24,548 nt of DNA from Planctomycetota bacterium (GTDB lineage: Bacteria; Planctomycetota; SZUA-567; H5-PLA8): NCBI GenBank assembly GCA_038227875.1, contig JBBRPR010000092.1, forward strand, positions 1-24,548. The letters are read 5' to 3'. Positions within the stretch are counted from its first letter, which is position 1. Every line of letters starts with the position of its first letter. Shown here in pieces: positions 1 through 12,563 of this stretch. The position numbers and the translations under genes are program-made. The notes under the pieces are model-generated. The model was not told the origin of the DNA, did no database searches, and saw only the letters and a program-made list of their open reading frames with translations.

Positions 1-1112
1 TCAGACCACGAAAACGTATCGGTATTGAAAGTGAATTGTGTATCTGTCCAAATGACCAATATGAGATTCTTTGCATTCGATGGCATCGTAAAAGTTCCGG
101 CGAACAACTGAAACGTCGTCGTCACTGCGCACGAAACGCTATTTGTTCCGATTGTTCCCTGCGCGCCCGTGGGAATCGAAGCCGGGCTTCCGATGTTCGA
201 AAGATTCGTGCCCCACGTCGGTTCCGTGCTTCCGCTTCCCCACGCGGACGGAACAAGCGTCGGCATAACATCAATCGTTCCGGTTGAAGACAGGATTGCC
301 ATGCGCAAAGTTTTTGAAGACGATGCGCGGAGTTTAATTTGAAAAGTCATCTTGCGACCGGCAAGCGGAAGCGTGTTATTCGCTTCGATTACTTGGAATA
401 TTGCCTGTTTTCCGGTCGTAGTCTTTTTCGCAAGTGTGCCGTAGTAGCGCGCGCTCAACCCGGTTTGAAGCGAAGTACTTGTGTCCGTTCGCGAAAAAAG
501 CGTGTTTGAATTTTCGGACGCGGCTTTCCATCGGTCCGTGGCGTATACGTCAGCGCCTAATCCGGTTCCGATGTTTGCGCCGCCCGTGTTGCGTTGATCG
601 ACGGCGCACGCGCCGTTGATGATCAAATTATTTACCGGGCGTGCCTTAGACTCATGATCGCTCAAAAGCAACTGGCGAAAAAGAGGCGATCCGGCCGCGC
701 CATCCGGCGATGCGTAGACGAGGTTTGGCGACGCTGCGGGAAAACTGTAAAGCTGTTTCATGTTCCCATTGGTGTCGAGAACGTAAAAGCCTTCATCTTC
801 GTAGACGAGCGTATCCCCGGCATTCAGCGTGACGGTGTAGATGACGTATGAAGTCGCGCTCTTTTTCACTCGGACCTTAACCGTGTTTGTCGCGGCTCCG
901 TCGATGTTAGCCATGTACATCGTCTTGATGCAGAATTGCCCGGTTCCCGATCCGGTTAAAAGCGTGGTAGTGGTTGCGCTCGTGATCGCCGCAACGGCCA
1001 GCTTGGGCGTGTCGGTTTGCGTGTCGACGTAATTTATCGAAGAGTGGATATTCGCCGTCGACGATGTAACCAGTTCTAAAATGTCGCCACCAGCGCCGTC
1101 TAGATTAATCAT
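1..1112 (-). CDS. Tail fibre/receptor-binding-type virion protein, 3' truncated by the window edge (>370 aa)
   Basis: Absent from the ORF track because it has no stop in the window. Manual translation from ATG at 1112 (ATGA overlap with the upstream stop, GAGGA RBS) gives [19 protein letters not shown]...[15 protein letters not shown]...DRWKA...LVIWTDTQ, open to position 1. The NLIING..V.QR/DRW motif is typical of phage fibre carbohydrate-binding-like domains. Confidence 0.8.
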
Positions 1113-2323
1113 ATTCCAAAAATCCTCTGCCACCGCTTCCCGCCGCCAGCCCCTGTTGCGCCGGTCACACCGGTCGCACCCACAGGCCCCGTCGCTCCAA
1201 CGGGTCCGGTTACTCCCGCTGGCCCCGTTGCGCCTGCAGGCCCAGCAACGCCGGTCGCGCCCGTTACGCCGACGGGTCCGGTTGCTCCCGCTGGCCCCGT
1301 TGCGCCCGCAGGACCCGCCACGCCGGTCGCTCCAACTGGCCCCGCCGCGCCGCTAGGCCCTGTCGCGCCCGCCGGGCCGGTCGCGCCCGTTGGCCCAACC
1401 ACGCCAGTCACGCCGATCGGTCCAGTTGCTCCCGCTGGTCCCGTTGCACCAGCCGGGCCAGTGACTCCCGTCGATCCGATTCCGCCAGTGACGCCTGTTG
1501 CGCCGATTGGACCCGTAGCGCCCGCTGGCCCGGTCGCGCCAATGGGTCCAGTAGATCCAGCGCCGCTCGGTCCAGGAGCGCCACCGCCGCCGCCCAGTCC
1601 GGTATGCTTTACCCACGGACCAGACGCGCCGACGTTGTAGAGTCCGTTTTGCGTAGGATCAGTCTGCGCGGTCAGGCCGACTACCATCCCCGCCGTGAGG
1701 GTGACAGAGCCTTCGGTAGTGACGCTGCCGTCGATGGCGACGTTGCTCGTAAAGCAGACGTCGATCTCCTCGAACGTGTTCTGACCGCCGCCGCCAGCGC
1801 TGGGAATACTGACCAGGGCGCGATGAATGTCGGTACCTGTATATGCGTCTTCATTGACGATCTGCCCACCGGCCGCACCGGTAGTCATGTACGTTTGCCC
1901 GGCAACAATGCCGACAACGTTTGATGTGTCGCCCCCGCTGCGCTTGATAAAAACAGGTGTGACACCAACGATCATCGCCTTGCCACATTCACCAGATTTC
2001 ACGGGCTCCTGTAGCACTGCGAATTTGGCTTCATAGCCAGCAACGGGAGTGATAGCCGCGTGAATGTAACTACGGTGATCTTCGCCGTCGCTGGGATCTG
2101 TCAGCAGCGCGTCCACGCCGACCGCCGAGAAAACATCGAGATCGGCACCGGTGTCATTGCGGACGATGATGATGCCAGCGCGCGCGGCCGCGACGGCCTC
2201 GCCAGAGCTAGCGCCGCCCGCCTGCCGAGACCTTTCGGTCTGCGCAGCATCAATCATCGAATTCACAGTCGACGGTTTCAGCTTGAACTTCTGAAACGAT
2301 GCGACCTTAATTCCGCCTTGCAT
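1109..2323 (-). CDS. Tail-tip/fibre protein with C-terminal collagen-like (Gly-X-Y) domain
   Basis: 404 aa; N-terminal tail-tip-like domain, a common phage fibre module ([24 protein letters not shown]), then about 46 uninterrupted G-X-Y triplets. Confidence 0.85.
1145..1558 (-). repeat. Collagen-like coding repeat ([12 protein letters not shown] triplets)
   Basis: 9-nt periodicity; a near-identical 72-nt-period duplication is visible at about 1200 and 1272 (acgggtccggtt[a/g]ctcccgctggccccgttgcgcc). Confidence 0.95.
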
Positions 2324-2325
2324 GA

Positions 2326-3666
2326 CTACCTCGCGCTGAATGAAAATTTCGTCGACGGCGGATTGAACGTGCCGATGGTCAGCACGGACATGTCAGCAGT
2401 AAGCGTCGCGGTTCCACCCGACTGCCAATTCATTGTGGTTACCGTTCGACCGCGCGACGATCCGGTGAAGTCGACAGTTCCTCCGTACAAATTCATCGTC
2501 GTGATTGTGCCGGTCGAATTCGACTTGAGCGCGCCCGCATAGAGATTGAGCGTGGTAATTGCAAACGCGCCTTCAACCTGCAGCGTGCCCGCTTTGACAT
2601 TGCAAGTGGTCACTGTCGCGCCCGCCTGCAGTTTGTTTGTGCCTGAGTATTGTTCCCACGTCGTCATCGTGGTGCCGAGTCCGGTCACAACTTTTGAACT
2701 GCCGGTGAGATCAGTGATGGCCATCTTGCGAAGCGTGGAGGTCTCGCCGTTCTGATCGATGGCGACACCGAAGCCGCCTGGAGCGGAGCGGACGAAGCAA
2801 TCGAGCGACGCGCTATTGCATTTGATCCGGACCGCTGGCCGGCTGGACTCGGCCGCGCTGGAACTTGTGTTCTGAATTTCAACCGTGCCCGCCGACGTAC
2901 CGAGGTCGAGCATAATGCGCCGGGAGCCCGCGAGCGTGGTTCCTGCCGTCGAATTGTTTTCGCCGATAACGACAAGCTGCGAACTTTGCAGTCCGATCTG
3001 CAGATAAAGCGGCCGGTATTCCGTGTAGAGCGCATTACTCGTGTTGCCATCGGCCGACGTTGTGAACACGCTTCGGTTGAGTCCAAGCAAGCCGGTGAAG
3101 CTCTGCATGATTCGCAGCGAGTTGACCGTCACAGCGGATTGATTGAGCCCGTAGGAAATGTTCAGTGAGGAATCGTTGACGACGACGTCGTCACCATTCA
3201 CGGGCACCGCGCCTGTCGACCAATTCGCGGCCGTACTCCAGTCAGTCGGGCCAGCGGAAGCCGTATCTACACCACCCGCAGCGCCGAACGCACTCACGCT
3301 TCCCGATCCCGCTCCCGATTTCGAAATGACTGCGGTGAACGGGACGCCTGCTGTGAGCGACGTACCCGTGACCTTCGCGGCGCTGGGATTTGTCCAGGCG
3401 ACGGCCGTGAAATACGGATGCGTCGACGCGGTGCAGGCGGCCACAAGCGCAGCGGCCGTCGTATTGGCGTTCGTGATCCCAGTGACAGTCACTGCGACAC
3501 CGCCGATGGTCACAGTGAACGTATTGTTCGCGGGAGTGCCGTCGACGGAAGCAATCGCGGCCGTCGCGACCTGCGCAACGGCAGGCGCGTTGCCGATCCA
3601 GATCGGCGTTGCCGCCGCGACGTGGAGCGAGAAGACGAAAAGAAATGCCAGTGCAAGCTTTCGCAT
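2326..3666 (-). CDS. Signal-peptide-bearing beta-rich (beta-helix/adhesin-like) protein within the tail module
   Basis: 446 aa; [22 protein letters not shown]-terminus; [21 protein letters not shown] motif; C-terminal repeats ([27 protein letters not shown]). Confidence 0.75.
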
Positions 3667-3668
3667 TT

Positions 3669-4445
3669 TTAGGCTCCAATGCCGAGGGAGGAGAACGGAC
3701 CGTACTCGTAGATTTGCTCGACGTAGACGGCAGTCGGCTTCTTGATTTTAACTTTGGCCGTGGTGTCGACGGCGTTGTTGTAGAAAACCCAGAGATATTC
3801 CCAGCCCTTTTTCTCAATGCCAGAGATGCCGCCGATTTGGAGACTCACGGCGTTGGGCTGATAGCCAAATTTAAAATTTACTTCCCACAATCCGTCGTCG
3901 CGCTCTTGACCGGTGACTCCGTAAAACAAAACTTCACCGGCGCTGTAGCCTTGAAACGGATCGGAGTTCACGTGGCCCGTGAGCGCGTAGTAAGCGGGGA
4001 CATTGAGCTCCGCGTCCTCAAGAGCATGCGTTTCGGTCCAATTAAAAACGGGCACAACCTTATCGACGCCAGCGACATTGTCCCCATCAACCCCGATGGC
4101 TTGTCCGAGTTCGTCAGAATAGTTACCGTACTTCCCGACCGTGGCAATGGATTGAGTGATGTGCTGCGTGCCGCCCGTGGAATCGTACTGGACGACTGTT
4201 GTCGGCTTCGCGACGTAACGAACCGAACACCGCCAAGTGTTATGCGTGAGCTGCTCGACGACCTCCGCCGAGTGGTAGCGCATTTCATTAAACGTGTCAG
4301 GAGCGAACGCGATCACTGCGTTCAACGCGTCGGTTTCATCCGAGGCGTTGCGCGCGGTATAATCCAACGTCGCAACCGAACGCTCACTGATATTGTCAGT
4401 GTTCGTCTGCTTGCGGCTGTTGAGATTCTCAGTGATATTCGGCAC
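3669..4445 (-). CDS. Tail tip/hub protein (distal tail position)
   Basis: 258 aa, beta-rich, immediately after the tape measure gene; function assigned from position. Confidence 0.6.
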   Translation of the reverse strand: MPNITENLNSRKQTNTDNISERSVATLDYTARNASDETDALNAVIAFAPDTFNEMRYHSAEVVEQLTHNTWRCSVRYVAKPTTVVQYDSTGGTQHITQSIATVGKYGNYSDELGQAIGVDGDNVAGVDKVVPVFNWTETHALEDAELNVPAYYALTGHVNSDPFQGYSAGEVLFYGVTGQERDDGLWEVNFKFGYQPNAVSLQIGGISGIEKKGWEYLWVFYNNAVDTTAKVKIKKPTAVYVEQIYEYGPFSSLGIGA

Positions 4446-6173
4446 TTAAGGATTCCTCACGGCATCATTGCGTGGGTCCGTATTCTGCGCAGTCTTTTCA
4501 CACGACTTCGCGATGCGCTCGCCGATGTTCGGGCCGATCCCTAGCTGGCCCACGGCGCTAGAGTTGAACGTGCCAACAGACGAGCCCTTGATACCGGAAT
4601 CCAAAATACCGGGGACATCCTTCTTGTCGGGCGTGCCGAACGGTGTGGCCTTGGGCAGTTCCGGCGCTTTGATCGCGCCGACTGCCGTGCTGAGCGCGCC
4701 AGTAATTGAATTCCAGACGTTGTCACCGATTTTAGTCAGCGCGCCTTTCGCGCGGTCGGTGTCCAGGTGAACGCCTTTTGAGCCGTCCTGTGGATCTTTC
4801 TTAAAGAGATCGGCCATCTGCTTGTCGAGCGCTTTGTTTTTGCGCTCGCCGGTCAGAAGCGTGTTGTCGCGTGCGCTCGCGCGTTGATCGATTTCCTTGT
4901 TGCCCGTGTCGCGAAATCCCTGGAGCGCCTTGTTCGTGTTGTTGAGAAAACTCGTATCGATCTTCAGCGACTTCGGAGCGATGGAATTAAACGCTTCAAT
5001 GATCAACTGCAGCCCCTCCGTCAAATTTGAAATCATATAGGAAAAAGCGTTCGCGATTTTTGTGATGACATAGCTCCACGCGCCCCACCACGTCTGCGCA
5101 ACCCACGAAATGCCAGTGACGAGATCGTTGAATCCTTTTTCAATGAAAACCCAAAATGCACCGAGCCATGTCCCTAATCCGGTGCCATCCACTCGGATAG
5201 AATTAAAGAGTTCTCCGAATCCGGTTGCCGTCACACCTAGAGAATCGGTGACAGCAAGCGAAGCCATGCCAATCCCTATGACAACGGCCGTCAACAGGAT
5301 CGCGGGAGAGAGCGCCGCGTAGATCGCGCCGCCAACGGCAAGAAACGCTGTGCCGACGACACTGAGCGCCACACCGACTTTAAAAAGCCCCTGAACCAAT
5401 TCGGGATGAACGGCGATCCACTCCTGGAAGCCCTTGATCACCTGGACGATCTGTTCGATGAACGGTGTGAGGATCGGTGCCAACGCCGCGCCGATGGACA
5501 CCTGCAGCCCTTCGGCGGATTTAGATACGCGTTTGAACTCCGCGCCGAGCTTCGCCGCGGAGTCGATTGCTTTTTGATCCAGCGCGAGACCGAACTCGCG
5601 AGCGGAATTCGCCGCACGATTCAATCCGTCCGCGCCCTGCGAGAGCAGTGGCAATAGTTCAACGCCAGCGCGTCCGAGCAACCGCTGCGAGAGCTCCACC
5701 TGCTGACCTTTGTCTTTGACGGCCGCGAGCCGCTCAGCGACCAAGCCCAGCTGCTCTTCCGGAGAAAGCGCCTGGAGTTCTTTGAACGTCAGTCCGAGCG
5801 CCGTGAATGCTTCGGCGGACTCTTTGGTTTGATTGACGATATTGCGCTGCATTTCTTTTACGGCGTGCCCCAGCGCTTCCGCGCCCGCGCCGCCCGCGTA
5901 GAACAATCCAGCGACAGCCGAGCTCGACATGCCGGTCTGCGCCATGAACGCTTTGGTCTGCTTGCCCAGATCGGCAAAGGCGTGCGCACTGGCGACCAGC
6001 GGAGCCGTGATCGCCGCGCCAATTCCAGCCATCGTTCCGCCGATGGTTGTGATGGAACCAGCGAACGCCCGGAGAGAGGACTCGACACCCTTCATTGCGG
6101 CGTCGAATTCCTTGGTGACGGCGCCAATGACAACGTATGCGCCGCCTGCCTTCACGTCACCAGACTCAGCCAT
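4446..6173 (-). CDS. Tail tape measure protein
   Basis: 575 aa, Ala/Gly-rich helical; LSPEEQL...LLGRAGVELLPLL motif; central hydrophobic segments; follows the chaperone genes. Confidence 0.92.
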   Translation of the reverse strand: MAESGDVKAGGAYVVIGAVTKEFDAAMKGVESSLRAFAGSITTIGGTMAGIGAAITAPLVASAHAFADLGKQTKAFMAQTGMSSSAVAGLFYAGGAGAEALGHAVKEMQRNIVNQTKESAEAFTALGLTFKELQALSPEEQLGLVAERLAAVKDKGQQVELSQRLLGRAGVELLPLLSQGADGLNRAANSAREFGLALDQKAIDSAAKLGAEFKRVSKSAEGLQVSIGAALAPILTPFIEQIVQVIKGFQEWIAVHPELVQGLFKVGVALSVVGTAFLAVGGAIYAALSPAILLTAVVIGIGMASLAVTDSLGVTATGFGELFNSIRVDGTGLGTWLGAFWVFIEKGFNDLVTGISWVAQTWWGAWSYVITKIANAFSYMISNLTEGLQLIIEAFNSIAPKSLKIDTSFLNNTNKALQGFRDTGNKEIDQRASARDNTLLTGERKNKALDKQMADLFKKDPQDGSKGVHLDTDRAKGALTKIGDNVWNSITGALSTAVGAIKAPELPKATPFGTPDKKDVPGILDSGIKGSSVGTFNSSAVGQLGIGPNIGERIAKSCEKTAQNTDPRNDAVRNP

Positions 6174-6543
6174 ATCTCTCCCAGCCTCCGCGTTTCAAAA
6201 ACGCGTCATACCGCGCTTCGATTTCCGACTCCGTGAGTTCCTCACGTTCCCTTACACTCGGATTCAGCAATTCATCCTTGTCGACAACCGGCTTTTCGGA
6301 GTCAACCAACGGGTGAATGTCGGCCAGCCTGGTCTTCGCGAGCGCGGTACGAACGACGTATGCCGTCCAAACCGCACGATCCCACGCCATTCTTTCCCGC
6401 TCAGTCCGCCGCCACATCAATTCCCGCAGCGTGAACCGTTTGATGTTTTCCACACCGGCCAGCGCGGCGGTTTCGTGGACTAATTGCCACTCCCATTGCC
6501 GGGAGCGGGAACCGGAACTGGATTGCTTTTTTGCTGGCTCTGG
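6166..6543 (-). CDS. C-terminal (gpT-like) part of the tail assembly chaperone, expressed by -1 frameshift
   Basis: The frame of ORF 6166..6453 stays open back to the slippery site (PEPAKKQSSSGSRSRQWEWQLVHETAALAGVENIKRFTLREL...) and is the -1 frame of 6480..6851. Confidence 0.85.
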   Translation of the reverse strand, partial: PEPAKKQSSSGSRSRQWEWQLVHETAALAGVENIKRFTLRELMWRRTERERMAWDRAVWTAYVVRTALAKTRLADIHPLVDSEKPVVDKDELLNPSVREREELTESEIEARYDAFLKRGGWERYG

Positions 6544-6851
6544 AAAAAAAGCGCGATAGCCGGCCCGATGGCTTCGGCGATGGAGAGCATTTGAATGTCG
6601 CTGGTGAATGAATCCGCAAAATCGTCGAGCGCGACATTTCGAGCGCGCGACTCTTCACGACAGGAAAAGAACGCCAGCGCAATCAGATCGCCGACGCTCA
6701 AACTCTTTTCGAGATTCTGCAGCGTCTGTGGATCGAAAAACTTACGGCCGGTATGCGTCTCAAAACGCATGAGTGTTCCGCATGTGATCTTGGGATGCCA
6801 CTGACGGCCCTGCGCATCGCGAGCCGCAGGGGGTTGATTCGAATCGGACAT
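6480..6851 (-). CDS. Tail assembly chaperone (gpG-like)
   Basis: 123 aa between the tail tube and tape measure genes; GGAGGAG RBS; slippery site near the 3' end. Confidence 0.88.
   Translation of the reverse strand: MSDSNQPPAARDAQGRQWHPKITCGTLMRFETHTGRKFFDPQTLQNLEKSLSVGDLIALAFFSCREESRARNVALDDFADSFTSDIQMLSIAEAIGPAIALFFQSQQKSNPVPVPAPGNGSGN
6543..6549 (-). promoter_or_regulatory. Programmed -1 ribosomal frameshift heptamer T TTT TTC
   Basis: CTT TTT TTC (Leu-Phe-Phe) in the zero frame; X XXY YYZ pattern in the correct phase; the -1 frame is open to 6166. Confidence 0.85.
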
Positions 6852-6887
6852 TTAAGACTCCTCCATGCAGTTGCAGTTGGGTTTAGA

Positions 6888-7280
6888 TCAAACCACAACC
6901 AGCGCGCCGGTTCCCTTTGCGGTCAACGAGACCATCAACGCGCCGTCGAGCGGCTCTTTTTGCTCCAGCTTCGTAATGATCATGTTGCCGCTGAAACCCT
7001 TGCCGCTAGTGGCGGCATCGACAGCACTCCAGGCGAGGACCGTGCCGCCCATGAACGCGGTCTGCAAATCCGTATACGCAGTATCCGACGACAGCCACAG
7101 TTGCTCCCAACTCAGGTCATACTCCTTGAGCCCCTGCATGAATTCTTTCCACCCGGCTCCCGCGCGCGTGGAAATGTCGATCTCTTTTCCCTGCGAACTC
7201 ATGCTGAAGTCGCGACATTTGGCAACAGTCGTCGGGGAAGCGCCTTCGGTGAATTTGCAGCTATAGCCAGCGATACCCAT
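6888..7280 (-). CDS. Major tail tube protein (TP901-1-like family)
   Basis: 130 aa; EIDISTRAGAGWKEFMQGLKEY and FSGNMIITKLE...SLTAKGTGAL motifs. Confidence 0.9.
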   Translation of the reverse strand: MGIAGYSCKFTEGASPTTVAKCRDFSMSSQGKEIDISTRAGAGWKEFMQGLKEYDLSWEQLWLSSDTAYTDLQTAFMGGTVLAWSAVDAATSGKGFSGNMIITKLEQKEPLDGALMVSLTAKGTGALVVV

Positions 7281-7295
7281 GGCAAATCTCCTTTA

Positions 7296-7760
7296 TCAGG
7301 CACTCGCCGACGTACGAAGTACGCGGACATTAGTGCGGATGGTCCAACCCGGAAAACCCAAACCGTCGTTCGTGGCCATCGGCAGAGTGGCGCTGACACC
7401 CCACTGCTCTAAGTAGAGCGGCGCGAGCCACGTGCTGAGATCGGCGCGGTCGATCAGTTTCCAGAGCTTCAGCGCGAGATCGCGCACGGGCTTGCCTGAG
7501 AAATCCTTCTTGCCGAAAATCTGCGCGTCCGCGACGAACGTGCCGCCCGAGAATTGACGACAGCCAAAATCAGGCGCGCCCGACACGTCACCGACGACAA
7601 TGTAGGGCGTCGCCATATTGTCTGGGACAGTGTGCTCGTTAGAGAAAATCGCAGGCGCATTGCCCGTGCCGAAATCGAACTGCGAGAGTCCTGCTCGAAT
7701 ATCTATCGCGAGTTGCGCGGAACTCGTGGCGATCAATTTGTAAAGCGCCTGAGAGATCAC
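7296..7760 (-). CDS. Tail terminator/completion protein (DUF3168-like)
   Basis: 154 aa; ALYKLI...VPDNMATPYIVVGD motif; lies just before the tube gene. Confidence 0.78.
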   Translation of the reverse strand: MISQALYKLIATSSAQLAIDIRAGLSQFDFGTGNAPAIFSNEHTVPDNMATPYIVVGDVSGAPDFGCRQFSGGTFVADAQIFGKKDFSGKPVRDLALKLWKLIDRADLSTWLAPLYLEQWGVSATLPMATNDGLGFPGWTIRTNVRVLRTSASA

Positions 7761-8260
7761 GAGACAGCACCTCCCAGCGGAATGTTTTCAAAGACCTTGG
7801 CGAAGCGCGCGCGGCAGTTGTCCAGGGCGGGCCGCATAAACGGCCGCGCTGGAATGTGGACGCTGGAACCCACGGCCTTCCAGATGCCAAGATTCATCCC
7901 GAGCCACATTCGCATTTTCGCGGTCACGCGGATCAGCCCGCCGAATTCATGAATTCGGCCGTAAGGCGCGGTTGTGGCCGGGCCAACAACCCAGCTGCCG
8001 TCGGGCTGCCGAGCGGCTTGAATCGAGCCACGAAGATTTCCGGAGCGCAAATGCGGCGGCATGCCGGTTTCACTGGGCGTGTATTTGATTTCCCTCTTGC
8101 CGCTGGAGGTAACCGGAGTCGCGCCGCCTTTGGAAAGCAGGCGCTTGGCTTCAGCCTCGACCATGAGCGCGCACTTGCCGAGTCGCTCAGTGACGCCCTT
8201 TTTCAGGTGATCAGCGATTTCATCTGTGTTGAGGTAGACTCGCGCCTTCATGTCGATCAT
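7757..8260 (-). CDS. HK97 gp10-like / virion morphogenesis neck protein
   Basis: RSGNLRGSI, APYGRIHEFGG and IPARPFMRPAL motifs. Confidence 0.88.
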   Translation of the reverse strand: MIDMKARVYLNTDEIADHLKKGVTERLGKCALMVEAEAKRLLSKGGATPVTSSGKREIKYTPSETGMPPHLRSGNLRGSIQAARQPDGSWVVGPATTAPYGRIHEFGGLIRVTAKMRMWLGMNLGIWKAVGSSVHIPARPFMRPALDNCRARFAKVFENIPLGGAVS

Positions 8261-8267
8261 GAACTAG

Positions 8268-8277
8268 ATAGATACGC
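8268..8277 (-). promoter_or_regulatory. GCGTATCTAT motif copy 3 (putative late promoter element)
   Basis: Exact 10-mer in a 30-nt intergenic gap, 7 nt before the ATG at 8260; identical copies at 12607 and 17559. Confidence 0.7.
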
Positions 8278-8290
8278 ATGGGGCGGGGAG

Positions 8291-8596
8291 TTACGGCGAG
8301 ACCGGCCGATCAATGCGGGTGAGATTCACTTCGCGTTTGGTCGTGTCCAGGACGCGGTTGGCATCGATCACGCGATAGAAGGTTTCTGTCGAAGTGTCTT
8401 CGGGAATGATGCCGACGATATCATTGATCTTCACGTCCTCGTAAAGCTCAACGATCATCGTGATCTGCGTTTTGTTTGCTTCCAAGATGCCAAACAAAAC
8501 CGTCGCAGTGCCGAGCGTCTCGGAAAAGCCGCCGTCGCCGTCAGGCACGCGGGTCGGCCGGTAGCGGTTAAAGGGATAGGGAAGTGGCATCTTCAA
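8291..8596 (-). CDS. Head closure / head-tail adaptor (SPP1 gp16-like)
   Basis: About 100 aa; RPTRVPDGDGGFSET motif; follows the connector gene; the start may be ATG at 8590. Confidence 0.78.
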   Translation of the reverse strand: MKMPLPYPFNRYRPTRVPDGDGGFSETLGTATVLFGILEANKTQITMIVELYEDVKINDIVGIIPEDTSTETFYRVIDANRVLDTTKREVNLTRIDRPVSP

Positions 8597-9216
8597 GTCC
8601 TCGCTTTTGATTTCAAGGCGTAGGGCTGAATCATCTTAGCGATGTCGCTATCCACGAACGCGCCGAACTGGATTGACGCACCTTTCGCGCCGCTCGACAT
8701 CTCCGCGCCACGCGCGCGGTAGGCGCGAGTGACCAACGCCAGCGCGGCCTGCTTGAGCAGGGCCGGGGCCGTGGCATATCCGGCGGTGTAGTCGGCTCGG
8801 TAGCGTCCCATGCCGTCCATGAATCGCACCCAGTACGCCCAGCGGTTTTGCTGCATTGAAAGATCGTAGACCGTGGGCTGCAGCCACGGGACGCCGGTAC
8901 CAGGATCCGCGCGGACGATGCGCCCCTTGCCGATCAACGCCACCACAATGAGATCACCGGTAACGCGATCAATCACAGTGGGGTAGGTTTGGCCGGACTG
9001 CACCGTCAGAGCCGTCACAGGCCGACTAGAAGGGAAGAGGATGCCCATCCCGCCGTCGAGATCCTCTTCAACGGCCGAACTGCCGAATTTGATTCCTAAA
9101 TGGGTGGCGAGGAACTCTTCCGAGGCGTCGCACAGGATCTGGATTACGGCATCCTGCGCCGTGTGCCCTACCATTAAATAAGCCTTTGCCGTGGCCAGAT
9201 CGATGATTGTGCTCAT
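8593..9216 (-). CDS. Head-tail connector protein (HK97 gp6 / phiE125 gp8-like)
   Basis: IDLATAKAYL...QDAVIQILCDASEEFL and YTAGYATAPALLKQAALALV motifs. Confidence 0.9.
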   Translation of the reverse strand: MSTIIDLATAKAYLMVGHTAQDAVIQILCDASEEFLATHLGIKFGSSAVEEDLDGGMGILFPSSRPVTALTVQSGQTYPTVIDRVTGDLIVVALIGKGRIVRADPGTGVPWLQPTVYDLSMQQNRWAYWVRFMDGMGRYRADYTAGYATAPALLKQAALALVTRAYRARGAEMSSGAKGASIQFGAFVDSDIAKMIQPYALKSKART

Positions 9217-9332
9217 TTTAGCCCAATGCCTCCGTCTGACAGCCCTGCAACGTTGGATAGATCGCGCTGTGGGCGATTATCTCATTCAAAAGGCAAGAAC
9301 ATGGGGATTGACGTATCCGAGCGCTATAAACG

Positions 9333-9413
9333 GCGGGAATTCATCCTCGGGGCGGGCTGGGCGTAACTGTGGAGGAGGTCAGTCCGCTTCCAGCGCCCCG
9401 AGGCGATTCCCGC
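9333..9413 (-). other. Long imperfect RNA hairpin with ACCUCCUCCA loop, directly after the decoration gene stop
   Basis: Nested pairings GCGGGAAT/ATTCCCGC, CCTCGGGGCG/CGCCCCGAGG, CTGG/CCAG, GCG/CGC and GACTG/CAGTT. Confidence 0.75.
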
Positions 9414-9415
9414 GA

Positions 9416-10270
9416 TCAGTTGGTTTCGACCGTCATGGCGTAACAGAGAATGTCGTTCGCGGCCGTGCCCGATTGACCGCTTACCTTAATAGTAATGGCT
9501 CCCGTCTCGGTTTCTGCACCCGCTGCCGAGTAGTCCGTGATGTTGACGGTATCGTGTACCATCTTACCAAGCACCTGCTGCGTACTTGCGCCGGTGCGGA
9601 TCACGGTCAGTTCGGCGTGCCAGTTTTTGTTCGAATCGGTCAGTACCCCGGAGGTAATGACCTCCGAACCGAAGTAGAGCTTGATCGTCTTGTTATTTCC
9701 GGTTGTCGCGCAATGGCCCCACGCATGGATTTTCAGCACCTGGTTGGCGGAAGTGAGCGTGTTGGCGGGCAGTGCATACGTGAAAAGCACGTCTTCGCTG
9801 GTATCCGTGTTCGCCGCGCCGGTCGCGCTGGACTGTGCGCTGAGCACGCCATTGGATTTCCCGGTAAGCACGACGTCGCAGATATCCCCGTCGCTGGTCG
9901 TAGCGTTGAGCGCGATGCCCAGGCGTCGAGTAGCGGCAGTTGCAGTGATCTTGCCGACGGTATCGGGATAGACGTTCGCGCCCGCCGTGATCGCGCCGCT
10001 GGCCGTCAGGGAAAATACAGGCCGAAAGAGCAGCACGGTTACGCCGCCGCCGGATGCCGTGGTTTGCAGCGCACGCCCAATCGCTTCGTCGGCAGTGCTC
10101 GCCTGGGCTACCGAGTTCGCGCCGGAAACCTTGACCAGATTATTTGCCGTGATGGCACCGGACGCGGTGAAGCTCCGGCTATTTTCGGCGTCGCCAGCGA
10201 AGAGCGACGGAATAAAAACGAGCATGGCAGCGAGCAGTAGGCTCGCCAGAATGTTGTTTCGAGTCTTCAT
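9416..10270 (-). CDS. Capsid decoration/cement protein (DUF2190-like) with N-terminal signal peptide and C-terminal beta-sandwich domain
   Basis: Directly after the MCP; SFTASGAITANNLVKV...AIGRAL...LTASGAITAGANVY...LGIALNA...DGDICDVVL pattern; GGGAGG RBS. Confidence 0.8.
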   Translation of the reverse strand: MKTRNNILASLLLAAMLVFIPSLFAGDAENSRSFTASGAITANNLVKVSGANSVAQASTADEAIGRALQTTASGGGVTVLLFRPVFSLTASGAITAGANVYPDTVGKITATAATRRLGIALNATTSDGDICDVVLTGKSNGVLSAQSSATGAANTDTSEDVLFTYALPANTLTSANQVLKIHAWGHCATTGNNKTIKLYFGSEVITSGVLTDSNKNWHAELTVIRTGASTQQVLGKMVHDTVNITDYSAAGAETETGAITIKVSGQSGTAANDILCYAMTVETN

Positions 10271-10301
10271 TGGTACAACCTCCCGAGTGATTTTGGTTTT
10301 T

Positions 10302-10331
10302 AAAAAGCGAGGGGCGGCAATCGCCCCTCGC
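10302..10331 (-). terminator. Rho-independent terminator after the major capsid gene
   Basis: 10-bp perfect stem GCGAGGGGCG/CGCCCCTCGC with a 5-nt loop, followed by TTTTT on the minus strand. Confidence 0.85.
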
Positions 10332-10360
10332 GCGGATTCCAGTTTTGAACTATCAGAGAC

Positions 10361-11803
10361 TTAGGCAGCCAGCTGCGCGAACGCGCGGAGCTCAACCGGC
10401 TTGCCGCCGACCTGAATGAACATCACGTAGACCATCACGTTCTGTTCGATCTTTCGTTCGGCGCTGCGGGCCATGATGATTTCCTGCTCGACCGGCGCGA
10501 CGTACGACGCGAAGTTTCCGAACAGCACGTCACCCTGAACGCCCAGAGCCGGGAGACGCTGCGTCGGCACCACGGGGTAACCGAGGATCGTGCCGAGGTT
10601 CGCGCCCTGACCTGCACCGGAAGTCAGCGGCACAAACAGCGGGCGATTCTGGGTGTCCTTCTGGAGCTTCACGTCCTGCAGCGCCTTGTCCTGGATCGCA
10701 AACACCGCACCCGGCCGCAACTGCGGAGCGAGAGCGTGCTCCAGATTGACGAAGTCGTCGTACTTGACGTGCGCGCTCGTCGTGCGCGCAACCGTGTTCG
10801 CGAAGCCGATGATGCCGGTCGGCCGCGTGGTTCCGTTGCCGTTGATCACGGCGCGGTCGATCTTTCCCATCAGCGAGCGGCGGAACAAATTGTCGATCAG
10901 CGATTCGATGGGAATCGTCGAACGGTTGACCAGCTGGCGGGAGAGTTCGGTGCGCGTACCGAGTTCGAACGTCGGGATGGACTGCTGTTTGAACTTCGCT
11001 TCGGTGCCGTTGATTTCCGCACCTTCGGCGGTCCAGTACGACGCCGCGTAACCATCTTCGGCGAATTCATCTGCCGAATCTTCCGCACCCGGAGCCGCCT
11101 GCACCAATTGCGGCCAGAGGATCGTGCCGTAGCTGCACGGAACTTTGTAGCAGAGCGGCCAGAGCGCGGGCGCTTCGGACGGATACTGCAGGAGGTTCTT
11201 CATGAAGTCGGCCTGGAACAAATTGGCCTCTCCCGCCGATCCGCCAGACGACATCGGCAGCGCCTTGCCCGCGTAACCCGCGCGCGAACCGCCGTTCAGG
11301 AAGGATGAGTAGTCGGACTTTCCGCCGAAGAAAGCTTCGGGCAGAATCTGCATTGCGACGATCTTGGGAACCGCGACGGCACCTTCGATATTGCCTTCGC
11401 TTTCCATCTTCCAAGAGCCCTTCGGCGCGAGCAGATCGCGGGCGTTGCCGCCGAAGCTATCCAAGGTCTTACCCTTGAAGTAGTCGCTGAAAATAATGTA
11501 GTGATCTCGCGCTTCGTTGTCGTGATTGCGCGCCTGCGCGGGCGTCTTGGTGGCGAGCGTCCTTCCCTGCACCGTAACGAGATCGTCGATGCCGGAGAGT
11601 TGCTTGCGCCGGTTGGCGTGTTTCTTAGCCTCGTCCAAATCGGCGTTCAGCTTGTCGTACTCGGCGACCTTGCCGCGATATTCGGCGAGCGCATCGGTCT
11701 TGCCTTTTTCGTCGGTGGCCTTCTCGATCTTTTCCGACGCCGTTTCCATTTCGACTAACAGACCCTCCATCTTGCCCTTCAAGAGTTTGAGGTCGAGCTG
11801 CAT
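10361..11803 (-). CDS. Major capsid protein, HK97 family (480 aa, with coiled-coil delta/scaffold domain)
   Basis: Start reassigned to ATG 11803 (GGAG RBS; MQLDLKLLK...); WTAEGAEI, DRAVINGNGTTRPTGII, KDTQNRPLF, TILGYPVV and VLFGNF motifs. Confidence 0.95.
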   Translation of the reverse strand: MQLDLKLLKGKMEGLLVEMETASEKIEKATDEKGKTDALAEYRGKVAEYDKLNADLDEAKKHANRRKQLSGIDDLVTVQGRTLATKTPAQARNHDNEARDHYIIFSDYFKGKTLDSFGGNARDLLAPKGSWKMESEGNIEGAVAVPKIVAMQILPEAFFGGKSDYSSFLNGGSRAGYAGKALPMSSGGSAGEANLFQADFMKNLLQYPSEAPALWPLCYKVPCSYGTILWPQLVQAAPGAEDSADEFAEDGYAASYWTAEGAEINGTEAKFKQQSIPTFELGTRTELSRQLVNRSTIPIESLIDNLFRRSLMGKIDRAVINGNGTTRPTGIIGFANTVARTTSAHVKYDDFVNLEHALAPQLRPGAVFAIQDKALQDVKLQKDTQNRPLFVPLTSGAGQGANLGTILGYPVVPTQRLPALGVQGDVLFGNFASYVAPVEQEIIMARSAERKIEQNVMVYVMFIQVGGKPVELRAFAQLAA

Positions 11804-11834
11804 GGTTGAGTTCTCCAAAATTGGTTTCGAAAAT

Positions 11835-12563
11835 TTAGGCGTCGAGCAGAGAAATTTCTGCGCGGCGCAAAGCAATCTCCCGCTGAATGAGAGGCAATGC
11901 GGACGGCTGCAATGCGGGCGCGGCGGGCGTCTCAGTCTTTCCTGCGACGATGCCTGCGGCTTCGCTTTTGCCGGTGCTTTGCGCGGACTGTGCGGAGTCG
12001 ATTGTTGGTGAGTCTTCGGTCTTTGCGGCGAGTATGGCTGCCTGCGGATTGGCGGGGCGTACCGTGACGGTGACCTCGCAGAGCTCGCATTCCTGATGAA
12101 CAAGGACGTTGTCCGGCCCTTTCGGCATCGCCGAATTGGAGTAATCCCAGCGGACCGGTTTATATCCAACGCTCAAAAGGTTGACGTGCCCTTCGATCAC
12201 GAGCGTCCGGATTTCCTGCGCCAGTTCAACGCTGGAAAGTTCGGCATGAATCCAGAGACCAAAATCGTCTTCCTTGGCCTCTGTGATCGTACCGATACAG
12301 TCGAGCGCATCGCCGCCGTTGCAGAAATGCCGGACCATCAACTTCACCACGCCACGCGGAACGTTGATGCCAATCGAGCGCGTGAAACATCCACGCGTCA
12401 TGATTTCACCTTGCCCGTCGACGTTATTCCACACCGCCGCGTAGCCTTCGATCCAACCGCTCTTTCCACTGGCCGCGTCGTCAGTCTTGGCGCGGAGCCT
12501 GGATTCGGTGGGATGCATTACGCGGCGTGCGTGCCGGTCGACGCCGTTCCGTATTGGAGCCAT
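11835..12563 (-). CDS. Prohead maturation protease, HK97 family
   Basis: IEGYAAVWNNVD, EDDFGLWIHAEL, LSVGY and LCEVTVTVRPANPQA motifs; AGGAGG RBS. Confidence 0.95.
   Translation of the reverse strand: MAPIRNGVDRHARRVMHPTESRLRAKTDDAASGKSGWIEGYAAVWNNVDGQGEIMTRGCFTRSIGINVPRGVVKLMVRHFCNGGDALDCIGTITEAKEDDFGLWIHAELSSVELAQEIRTLVIEGHVNLLSVGYKPVRWDYSNSAMPKGPDNVLVHQECELCEVTVTVRPANPQAAILAAKTEDSPTIDSAQSAQSTGKSEAAGIVAGKTETPAAPALQPSALPLIQREIALRRAEISLLDA

Follow-up and report, generated by a model that had tools for sequence, protein, structure and literature searches.

A tail-module protein with a predicted Sec signal peptide in a siphovirus-type phage, probably of Planctomycetota

The late operon around gene 2326..3666

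The whole stretch of DNA analysed here, the window, is 24,548 nucleotides long. The gene under study, 2326..3666, is real and belongs to the late genes of an uncultured phage of siphovirus type; terminase, portal, S78 protease, HK97-type capsid, cement-type protein, connectors, tail tube, tape measure and Dit-like protein precede it, in this order, and a collagen-like fibre follows. The host phylum is probably Planctomycetota; relatives of a neighbouring gene occur in cultured Planctomycetota. The gene and its surroundings comprise the following features.

2326..3666, minus strand: the gene under study, 446 aa plus stop, encoding the precursor of a signal-peptide-bearing distal-tail-module protein
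3674..3677, minus strand: its ribosome-binding site GGAG, 7 nt before the ATG and within the 3' end of the upstream gene
3669..4445, minus strand: upstream neighbour, Dit-like (distal tail protein), 258 aa, immediately following the tape measure gene, assigned by position and weak fold resemblance
1109..2323, minus strand: downstream neighbour, collagen-like tail fibre, 404 aa (Pfam Collagen 7.1e-16; PHROGs tail fiber families 1.6e-25)
9416..10270, minus strand: cement-type protein of the same operon, with signal peptide, Phage_cement_2 and a C-terminal domain
10196..10270, minus strand: signal peptide of the cement-type protein, about codons 1-25

The best PDB matches of the Dit-like neighbour are the TP901-1 baseplate (4v96), the NF5 baseplate and SPP1 Dit (2x8k), at E values of 0.012-0.03 and none at or below 0.001. 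A second fibre gene, 3..1133, lies downstream; the contig ends within a fibre gene, with the genes past that point outside view.

Translation of the open reading frame reproduced both the extent and the 25-residue N-terminal sequence given in the original prediction, and the coordinates of stops and starts bear out its packing by 2 nt against both neighbours: the upstream gene ends with TAA at 3671..3669, 2 nt before the ATG at 3666..3664, and the TAG of our gene is followed after 2 nt by the ATG of the next gene at 2323. The next in-frame ATG, GTG or TTG is codon 52, inside the conserved domain, so that the signal peptide must be translated; a mis-called start was rejected on this ground and because a good GGAG precedes the ATG. 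In the scan of 1..10500, no sigma-70-like promoter or terminator-like site adjoined the gene, as had been claimed; the single promoter-like site in this range is at 9242..9215, and the sole strong hairpin at 10331..10307. GC and GC3 (59.7 and 70.0) match the GC of the window (58.4) and the GC3 of the neighbours (67-72). Co-orientation within the tail operon, hundreds of viral homologues and this composition uphold the earlier view that the gene is not an inserted moron. A search with the family profile returned the gene as the sole match in the window (E 1.4e-172) and thus no second copy without a signal peptide.

Signal peptide, fold and family of the encoded protein

The protein itself is divided as follows.

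3613..3666, minus strand: predicted Sec-type signal peptide, codons 1-18, with a predicted signal peptidase I site V16-A17-A18 before A19
3262..3612, minus strand: N-terminal alpha/beta domain, residues 19-135, with a conserved N-terminal strand (W23, G25, A27, Q32)
3184..3240, minus strand: motif at the start of the beta-rich body, residues 143-161
2329..3246, minus strand: beta-rich, repeat-like (solenoid-like) body, residues 141-446 (DSSP), pLDDT mostly above 95

Signal peptides were judged by sequence rules (charge of the n-region, uncharged run, residues -3 and -1) rather than by a dedicated predictor. By these rules the claimed signal peptide with an AxA-type site stands: an n-region MRK of net charge +2, a hydrophobic core with a run of 11 uncharged residues and a Kyte-Doolittle 11-residue maximum of 2.78, and small residues at -3 and -1 of the predicted cleavage site V-A-A before A19, with an alternative predicted cleavage between A19 and T20. 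Neither a lipoprotein signal (no Cys at +1 and none in residues 1-77) nor a Tat signal (an R-K pair in the n-region, not twin arginine) was found. Residues 1-20 have low pLDDT in the AlphaFold model, where they form an unstructured, detached stretch. Among the roughly 40 minus-strand open reading frames of the window, just two have a signal-peptide-like N terminus. We infer that the protein is made late together with the tail proteins, leaves the cytoplasm through Sec and is then cut by signal peptidase I, and consider its export and cleavage likely; on the evidence of sequence, this phage probably exports a protein of tail type from the cytoplasm, the usual site of tail building.

What kind of protein would be exported? 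The mature part is rich in Thr, Ser and Gly, as originally noted (T 15.4%, S 11.0%, G 10.7%), and also in Ala (12.9%). In the AlphaFold model (pLDDT 94.5), an alpha/beta domain at the N terminus is followed by a long body rich in beta structure. In Foldseek comparisons the N-terminal domain resembles protruding domains of phage sheath proteins, FliD and flagellin D2/D3 (E 0.02-0.3 over about 100 columns), and a copy of it lies inside a 762-aa tail protein of locus L002 (E 1e-8); as judged from the model, this type of domain occurs on exposed surfaces of phage tails and flagella. The WS..ANWS.G.VP..GDDV motif that had been pointed out is located at residues 143-161, where W143, N148, W149, P155 and D159 are invariant or nearly so in 119 aligned relatives, and the pattern W-x4-NW-x5-P-x3-D recurs in 171 of the 265 collected family proteins. 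With respect to phage tailspikes and depolymerases, that is, trimeric parallel beta-helices with a glycan-cleaving site, the PDB comparison gave no significant match; conserved charged residues of the family are D159, E216, R218, R250 and E308. The likeness to beta-helical adhesin passengers is borne out in part: beyond residue 160 the model is made up largely of beta structure with a repeat-like arrangement, but matches to beta-helices were weak (GH87, TMq 0.31, probability 0.20; FHA secretion domain, probability 0.05). No autotransporter translocator barrel was found; the protein ends in the beta-rich body, and the sole Pfam hit at E <= 0.1 is a sub-threshold Amnionless match. The best structural match over the whole protein is an unnamed viral protein, A0A516LPB8 (E 1e-16, TMq 0.60). 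Foldseek searches of the PDB with the model gave no match at E <= 0.001, and PDB and BFVD searches with it revealed no Tal/gp27-like fold. The label 'adhesin-type' is putative and draws on gene position, the surface-type N-terminal domain and the more variable C-terminal part, with a mean pairwise identity of 0.61 in the N-terminal domain versus 0.46 in the beta part.

Sequence searches place the protein among distal-tail-module proteins of tailed phages, in a very large family that has no name. Among 8000 candidates scored, 679 matched; the best 120 matches have E values of 1e-216 to 1e-84 across 93-100% of the length, and 2492 clusters (50% identity) were found at E <= 0.001. The nearest ESM Atlas clusters are 91-100% viruses, and all matches returned were unnamed viral clusters. 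The family is defined by alignment A1; the protein shares full-length similarity with it, including HPYF, and contains the N-terminal signature Y/I-W-x-G-x-A-x-x-x-Q. At loci L001 and L002 the family gene occupies the far end of the tail module, not the place directly after the Dit-like gene. Pfam, PHROGs and NCBIfam assigned no family to the protein, the sole hit again being Amnionless (E 0.031); an Amnionless domain was rejected, as the hit is below the cut-off and does not recur in 36 relatives, and is a shared short motif at best. The 36 relatives likewise gave no named family, residues 136-446 no usable match to named relatives, and profile searches of PDB sequences with alignments A1 and A2 no matches at E <= 10. 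Against 50,697 deposited phage genomes, tblastn found no match for the protein, for its signal-peptide-free relative P0015 or for the Dit-like protein. The scan of contigs of species-representative genomes returned just two loci, so the family is rare in such genomes. No description of it was found in a literature search that had subscription journals and bioRxiv supplements outside its range. With thousands of clusters, a high-confidence model and no annotation, the family deserves a name.

The signal peptide is an exception within this family. Taking a Kyte-Doolittle 11-residue maximum of at least 2.3 within the first 35 residues as the criterion, 8 of 265 collected proteins have a hydrophobic extension (6/120 in one set of relatives, 3/150 in another); it is absent from the other 257 (~97%), which begin M-[A/G/S]-T-x-Y-W-x-G. 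All eight bearers have an n-region charge of +1 or +2, an uncharged run of 11-14 residues and a [V/A/C]-x-A that lines up with Met1 of the homologues lacking a signal peptide: in P0001-5, P0056, P0163 and P0225, the -1 Ala aligns with Met1 of the nearest signal-peptide-free relatives and -3 is V, A or C, and in our protein it is A18 that aligns with this methionine. A FastTree tree of 156 rows requires four changes of signal-peptide state, well-supported branches force at least four, and none of 500 label shuffles gave as few changes as observed. The sequences thus indicate that the signal peptide was gained or lost at least four times, and that a family ancestrally without one had an 18-residue Sec-type signal peptide placed in front in the lineage of our protein. 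In four of four lineages the [V/A/C]-x-A ends at the relatives' Met1, so that cleavage would recreate the same N terminus; for our protein it would give A-T-P-I-W-I-G..., as in the relatives after methionine removal. The mature protein is 58% identical to its nearest signal-peptide-free relative and retains the invariant residues of the family, which suggests that the same fold and binding function are kept. In the neighbouring core Dit-like family, no signal-peptide-like extension was present among 120 members; the signal peptides are therefore a feature of peripheral-type proteins and not an artefact of gene calling.

The second protein of the operon with a signal peptide is the cement-type head protein, so that the expected decoration gene with a signal peptide was indeed found at 9416..10270; its close relatives bear a signal peptide too. 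It matches PF09956 at 2.6e-6, with 28.2 bits against a cut-off of 24, and its C-terminal domain is common to proteins of ~200 aa, many with a signal-peptide-like N terminus. Two cement-type relatives are on contigs that appear, from equal lengths (33380 and 21819), to hold signal-peptide-bearing homologues of our protein as well; this co-occurrence comes from one clade and represents one evolutionary event.

Possible roles of the exported protein

We favour, with a probability of roughly 40%, a role directed at the envelope. After Sec export and cleavage the protein would fold and act outside the cytoplasm, within the periplasm or on the surface of the infected cell. It would be a free version of a tail protein of adhesin type and would not be built into the tail in the cytoplasm. 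Once exported it would bind, or possibly cut, the envelope structure recognised by its family, and by masking or removing attachment sites it could exclude superinfecting phages or spare progeny from being trapped on debris. The downstream fibres, 1109..2323 and 3..1133, would remain for host recognition by the virion; that other virion fibre candidates are encoded downstream (Pfam, PHROGs) speaks for this role. Those phage proteins that are known to have export signals act on the envelope, among them T5 Llp, Cor, lambda Lom and Bor, spanins and Sec- or SAR-type endolysins. Against an envelope role, the gene is closely packed within the structural operon and comes right after the Dit-like gene, a position at which other siphoviruses encode an essential tail-tip protein. 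With no signal-peptide-free second copy in the window, this copy must serve if the virion needs the family. It also counts against the envelope role that the cement-type head protein has a signal peptide yet keeps its capsid-cement domain.

In the rival reading, which follows the proposal of the original prediction, both proteins are accessory virion proteins that would be exported by Sec, processed and folded in the periplasm, and would bind to otherwise finished particles only once these come into contact with the contents of the periplasm, at or after lysis. Two virion-module proteins of one phage bear signal peptides, which fits attachment to the virion after export better than two independent envelope-directed exaptations; the signal peptide is kept in close relatives of both, and bearers of both appear to share the contigs of equal length. 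The cement domain PF09956 is retained above cut-off, our gene is translationally packed in the tail operon, and both proteins are of peripheral types, for which binding to an assembled particle is conceivable in principle. If docking on the particle must persist, one would also expect the ancestral N terminus to be regenerated exactly, as predicted in all four lineages, and Planctomycetota have an enlarged periplasm. However, ~97% of the family does without export, the co-occurrence of the two signal peptides goes back to a single event in one clade, and proteins that bind at lysis would have to do so in spite of being rapidly diluted. Cys is not enriched as oxidative folding would suggest: the median is 2 in bearers and non-bearers alike, and oxidative folding was rejected as a benefit of export. 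We know of no precedent for adding virion proteins by way of Sec in tailed phages. Addition to the virion outside the cytoplasm is plausible, though on balance we doubt it and slightly favour action on the envelope. A little more doubtful still is the wider proposal that particle completion takes place outside the cytoplasm in a lineage of tailed phages, probably with Planctomycetota as hosts: the tail accessory and the cement-type protein would be exported, cleaved to the very N terminus of their cytoplasmic relatives and bound to tails and heads only as the particles cross the periplasm at lysis. If this were true, the at least four independent changes of signal-peptide state in this one tail family would imply that accessory virion proteins move easily and recurrently in evolution between a cytoplasmic and a periplasmic route of assembly.

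Export might also be inefficient or not take place at all, the protein being built into the tail in the cytoplasm with its hydrophobic helix active on membranes at infection, or being split into a virion-bound and an exported pool. The slot after the Dit-like gene is the usual place of tail-tip proteins, AlphaFold leaves residues 1-20 unstructured and detached, and some tail proteins, such as tape measure proteins and T5 pb2, are known to insert hydrophobic segments into host membranes. Yet a positively charged n-region, an uncharged core of 11-14 residues and [V/A/C]-x-A at the ancestral start recur in four independent lineages, a pattern that would not be needed in an uncleaved anchor; moreover, the distribution of charges predicts an N-in topology, that is, translocation of the body, and relatives free of a signal peptide have no hydrophobic N terminus, so the family does not need one. 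We regard this explanation as improbable. Far less credible again is a mis-called start, or the insertion of a host-derived gene for a secreted adhesin as a moron of the lambda lom kind. When a tail region encodes a secreted protein, it is usually a moron, and locus L001 has an opposite-strand signal-peptide gene within its tail module. Here, by contrast, strand, GC and GC3 are those of the neighbours, promoter and terminator of its own are lacking in the scanned range, hundreds of viral homologues lie in tail modules, and GGAG precedes an ATG with no alternative before codon 52; a moron or mis-called start is largely refuted.

Relation to known systems

The accepted view is that tailed phages assemble their particles wholly in the cytoplasm and that an export signal on a phage protein marks, as a rule, lysis or host conversion. 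In the present phage, an uncharacterised tail-module family is represented by a full-length member with a canonical export signal; at least three other lineages show the same change, and the cement-type head protein is a second bearer in this phage. If the envelope role holds, tail adhesin-type proteins would repeatedly become exported envelope factors, a simple route to superinfection exclusion; if addition to the virion holds, some virion proteins would join the particle after export.

T5 Llp, Cor of phi80 and N15, and lambda Lom and Bor act on the envelope of the infected cell itself. They share with our protein an N-terminal export signal and a gene in or next to those for tail and receptor-binding proteins. 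However, those proteins are small, belong to the lipoproteins or outer-membrane proteins, have no relation to virion proteins and often come with expression signals of their own, whereas ours is a 446-aa full-length homologue of tail-module proteins, with a predicted signal peptidase I site, no lipobox and a gene packed by 2 nt. Tal (gp27-like), which siphoviruses usually encode right after Dit, corresponds to our protein in gene position but not in fold, as no gp27/Tal-like fold was found in it. In filamentous phages, the coat proteins pIII and pVIII have Sec-type signal peptides and join the particle outside the cytoplasm, where assembly proceeds by membrane extrusion; the phage described here, in contrast, is tailed, has a terminase, a portal and an HK97-type capsid, and belongs to the phages whose particles are assembled in the cytoplasm.

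The nearest phage parallel is provided by Porphyromonas gingivalis phages, which like ours are tailed and have predicted signal peptides on proteins of structural modules; in the accessible part of the report, such peptides are predicted on core proteins and the authors conclude that the general secretion system of the host is used (PMC10367356). The authors attribute those on capsid proteins to cleavage by the prohead protease, and the other cases described there are genes of unknown function (PMC10367356). Recurrent gain on a single tail family and a cleavage site in register with the ancestral start, as the sequences indicate for the family of our protein, are not reported for the Porphyromonas phages in the accessible text (PMC10367356). 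Beyond this paper, our literature search, with the same range as above, found no Sec-routed virion proteins in tailed phages. For an exported protein of tail-accessory type that works on the envelope, the accessible part of another report offers WceF of Pantoea stewartii, a tailspike-fold enzyme that acts on the cell's own polysaccharide and has a cleavable N-terminal export signal (PMC7949094), as is predicted for our protein. WceF, as described there, is bacterial, chromosomally encoded, exported by Tat and a proven trimeric right-handed beta-helix glycanase (PMC7949094), whereas our protein is the product of a phage gene with a predicted Sec-type signal, known from its sequence and model.

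The target gene within the morphogenesis region

The window is a siphovirus-type phage morphogenesis region with every gene on the minus strand. It runs from the large terminase through portal, Mu F-like protein, S78 prohead protease and HK97-type capsid protein to a Phage_cement_2 protein, connector proteins, tail tube, two small genes and tape measure, and on to a 258-aa protein, the target, a 404-aa collagen-like fibre protein and a final fibre-like ORF truncated by the window end. A signal-peptide-like N-terminus occurs in only two of its ORFs, those of the target and of the cement-type protein:

2326..3666, minus strand: target ORF, 446 aa, ATG start
9416..10270, minus strand: cement-type protein

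The TAA of the upstream gene (3669..4445, minus strand; the 258-aa protein) is followed by 2 bases and then the target ATG, itself preceded by GGAG at 7 nt, and 2 nt separate the target TAG from the ATG of the next gene. Neither a promoter-like nor a terminator-like site lies beside the target in a consensus scan, in agreement with the packing originally described; GC (59.7%) and GC3 (70.0%) are in line with the neighbours. The predicted signal peptide is likewise borne out at the sequence level: residues 1-18/19 combine an n-region of +2, 11 consecutive uncharged residues and small residues at -3/-1, with neither a twin arginine nor a lipobox cysteine in this N-terminus. Since the next in-frame ATG/GTG/TTG is codon 52, within the conserved domain, a later start cannot avoid the hydrophobic N-terminus; this and the viral family of the protein essentially exclude a start-codon artefact or a moron.

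The 258-aa protein is called Dit-like because of its gene position and a weak fold resemblance: its model (pLDDT 87.9) has no PDB match at E <= 0.001, the closest resemblances being distal tail proteins (TP901-1 baseplate 4v96, NF5 baseplate and SPP1 Dit 2x8k; E 0.012-0.03). All six organism names among 120 listed relatives of this protein are Planctomycetota, a host phylum that we treat as a lead and not a result, since a second locus of the target family, binned as Gammaproteobacteria, points elsewhere. One relative of the Dit-like protein (P0336) has a cement-type N-terminus of ~60 residues (PF09956) fused ahead, a fusion that may be real or an assembly or frameshift artefact.

Other features of the region deserve mention. 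A strong terminator-like hairpin (10307..10331, minus strand; 10 pairs, 9 of them G-C, then a T run), the only strong one in 1..10500, sits in the interval from the stop codon of the capsid gene (10361) to the start of the cement-type gene (10270), where it may act as an attenuator for all genes downstream of the capsid gene. The longest capsid ORF (10361..12169, minus strand; 602 aa from a TTG start) shares more than 300 nt with the S78 protease gene (11835..12563, minus strand); it is rich in Arg, Pro and Ser over its first ~120 residues, the Pfam Phage_capsid match is limited to its C-terminal 240 residues, and the protein more likely starts at an internal Met (MQLDLKLLKG...). Collagen-like G-x-y repeats (GATGPxGATG...) take up ~150 residues at the C-terminal end of the 404-aa fibre protein (1109..2323, minus strand), whose gene shares 25 nt with the beginning of the fibre-like ORF that follows (3..1133).

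A viral family with a mobile N-terminal domain

The AlphaFold model of the target, built with 119 aligned sequences (pLDDT 94.5, pTM 0.90), has a low-confidence stretch at residues 1-20, an alpha/beta domain at residues ~21-135 and, from ~residue 141 onward, a long run of short strands. The composition of the mature part (T 15.4%, A 12.9%, S 11.0%, G 10.7%) and the motif at residues 143-161 agree with the original prediction. Foldseek found no match to the model in the PDB at E <= 0.001; the N-domain shows a resemblance (~100 columns, E 0.02-0.3) to domains that protrude from phage sheath proteins, FliD and flagellin (D2/D3), and the beta part gives beta-helix matches, all weak. The proposed adhesin-passenger-like beta-helix is therefore a reasonable picture, but its fold class is not demonstrated. 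In BFVD, a viral protein with no name matches best (E 1e-16, TMq 0.60); two proteins from uncultured tailed phages, both uncharacterised, come next. The possibilities of an autotransporter and of a gp27-like tail-tip protein were rejected.

A word-indexed search yielded 679 matches at E <= 0.001 among 8000 scored candidates, mostly of 412-430 aa, and an exhaustive search of 50%-identity representatives yielded 2492 clusters at E <= 0.001, of which 316 reach E <= 1e-30. In the ESM Atlas, viruses account for 91-100% of the nearest clusters; given these large viral family matches, a host-derived or orphan origin was rejected. Pfam, PHROGs and NCBIfam hold no family for the target or for 36 relatives, and neither a PDB sequence search nor a search of 50,697 deposited phage genomes returned a match. 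Across 185,579 species-representative genomes, we found the family at two loci only: a prophage with integrase in a Phycisphaeraceae MAG (L001), at the far end of the tail module, and a 6.9-kb contig binned as Gammaproteobacteria (L002), after a 762-aa tail protein (4201..6489, plus strand). Residues 239-348 of the latter are a copy of the family N-terminal domain (BLASTP E 1e-8), so this domain moves as a module between tail proteins; the same 762-aa protein has repeated Ig-like segments at its C-terminus. Within the clade of signal-peptide bearers around the target (P0001-P0005), two forms of the N-domain (encoded at 3262..3612 in the target), one being TFxTYDxxTTxxITIGG, are exchanged, and N-domain identity (0.47-0.77) is lower than that of the beta part (0.68-0.93), which suggests, from sequence comparison, recombination of the module.

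The signal peptide as a rare, recurrent addition

Most of the family begins without any extension: 114 of the 120 best matches (of 679) start directly with M-[A/G/S]-T-x-Y-W-x-G, and six (the query, P0002-5 and P0056) carry a hydrophobic extension of 18-21 residues. Three extensions (P0005, P0163, P0225) occur among 150 listed representatives of the 2492 clusters, making eight bearers among 265 collected proteins, and none among 120 members of the Dit-like family. For a FastTree phylogeny we used 156 of the 265 proteins, namely all eight bearers, 18 from the word-indexed search and 130 full-length representatives (400-455 aa), omitting representatives outside this length range and the remaining 94 proteins of the word-indexed search; a fill filter dropped the extension columns. 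On this tree, the signal-peptide state needs 4 changes; well-supported branches require no fewer than 4, and a number this low was reached in 0 of 500 label shuffles. As the tree is unrooted and quick, these changes do not formally separate gains from losses; four gains are the simpler reading because ~97% of the family lacks the extension.

In all four lineages, BLASTP against relatives without a signal peptide places an Ala opposite the relatives' Met1, preceded by [V/A/C]-x. The resulting [V/A/C]-x-A is a predicted canonical signal peptidase I site, and a cut there would free A/G-T/D-... as the new N-terminus. Methionine is removed before small residues, so relatives without a signal peptide would end up with the same N-terminus as cleaved bearers. 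This recurring register argues for real cleavage over an uncleaved anchor.

The cement-type protein is tripartite: a signal-peptide-like N-terminus (MKTRNNILASLLLAAMLVFIPSLFA|G) precedes a Phage_cement_2 domain (28.2 bits, cut-off 24) and a C-terminal domain. All seven close matches to its N-terminal part (P0266-71, P0291) have a hydrophobic N-terminus, which the remote cement-type matches P0296, P0298 and P0300-303 lack. The C-terminal domain (~residues 140-284) recurs in many ~200-aa proteins, a large share of them with their own signal peptide (e.g. P0277, P0283); 18 of 38 such matches have a hydrophobic N-terminus by our threshold. This architecture suggests that a capsid-cement domain was fused to one from a family whose members are mostly secreted. 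Judged by equal size, signal-peptide-bearing homologues of both proteins seem to share two contigs (33380 and 21819 bases); both come from the clade of the window itself and so count as one evolutionary event.

Probable export and possible roles of the target

The sequence gives good support for Sec export of the target and its cleavage by signal peptidase I, which we consider probable (roughly 0.7). A membrane-active N-terminus that is not exported fits the cleavage-site pattern poorly and is improbable. As to function, we tentatively favour a role on the envelope of the infected cell, where the exported target, acting as an unattached copy of a tail adhesin-type protein, would mask or modify attachment sites. 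The export-signal phage proteins known to us act on the envelope; if signal-peptide gains survive repeatedly, tail assembly in the cytoplasm must be able to do without the family, and other downstream fibre genes remain for host recognition by the virion.

A serious though less probable rival is the original prediction, in which the target is added to virions after export. Three points speak for it: the second signal-peptide protein has kept its cement domain, the predicted cleavage restores the ancestral N-terminus exactly, and the gene is tightly placed within a structural operon. Against it, ~97% of the family dispenses with export, cysteine content gives no sign of oxidative folding, and the literature searched yielded no precedent; the nearest report (PMC10367356) ascribes capsid-protein signal peptides to protease cleavage.

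Signal-peptide genes in tail modules can be arranged differently. The L001 prophage carries, within its tail module, a 192-aa gene on the opposite strand (8421..8999, minus strand) with a signal peptide (MKTLIIAGLITLSPALALLA...). Such an arrangement is the classical one of a moron and contrasts with that of the target.
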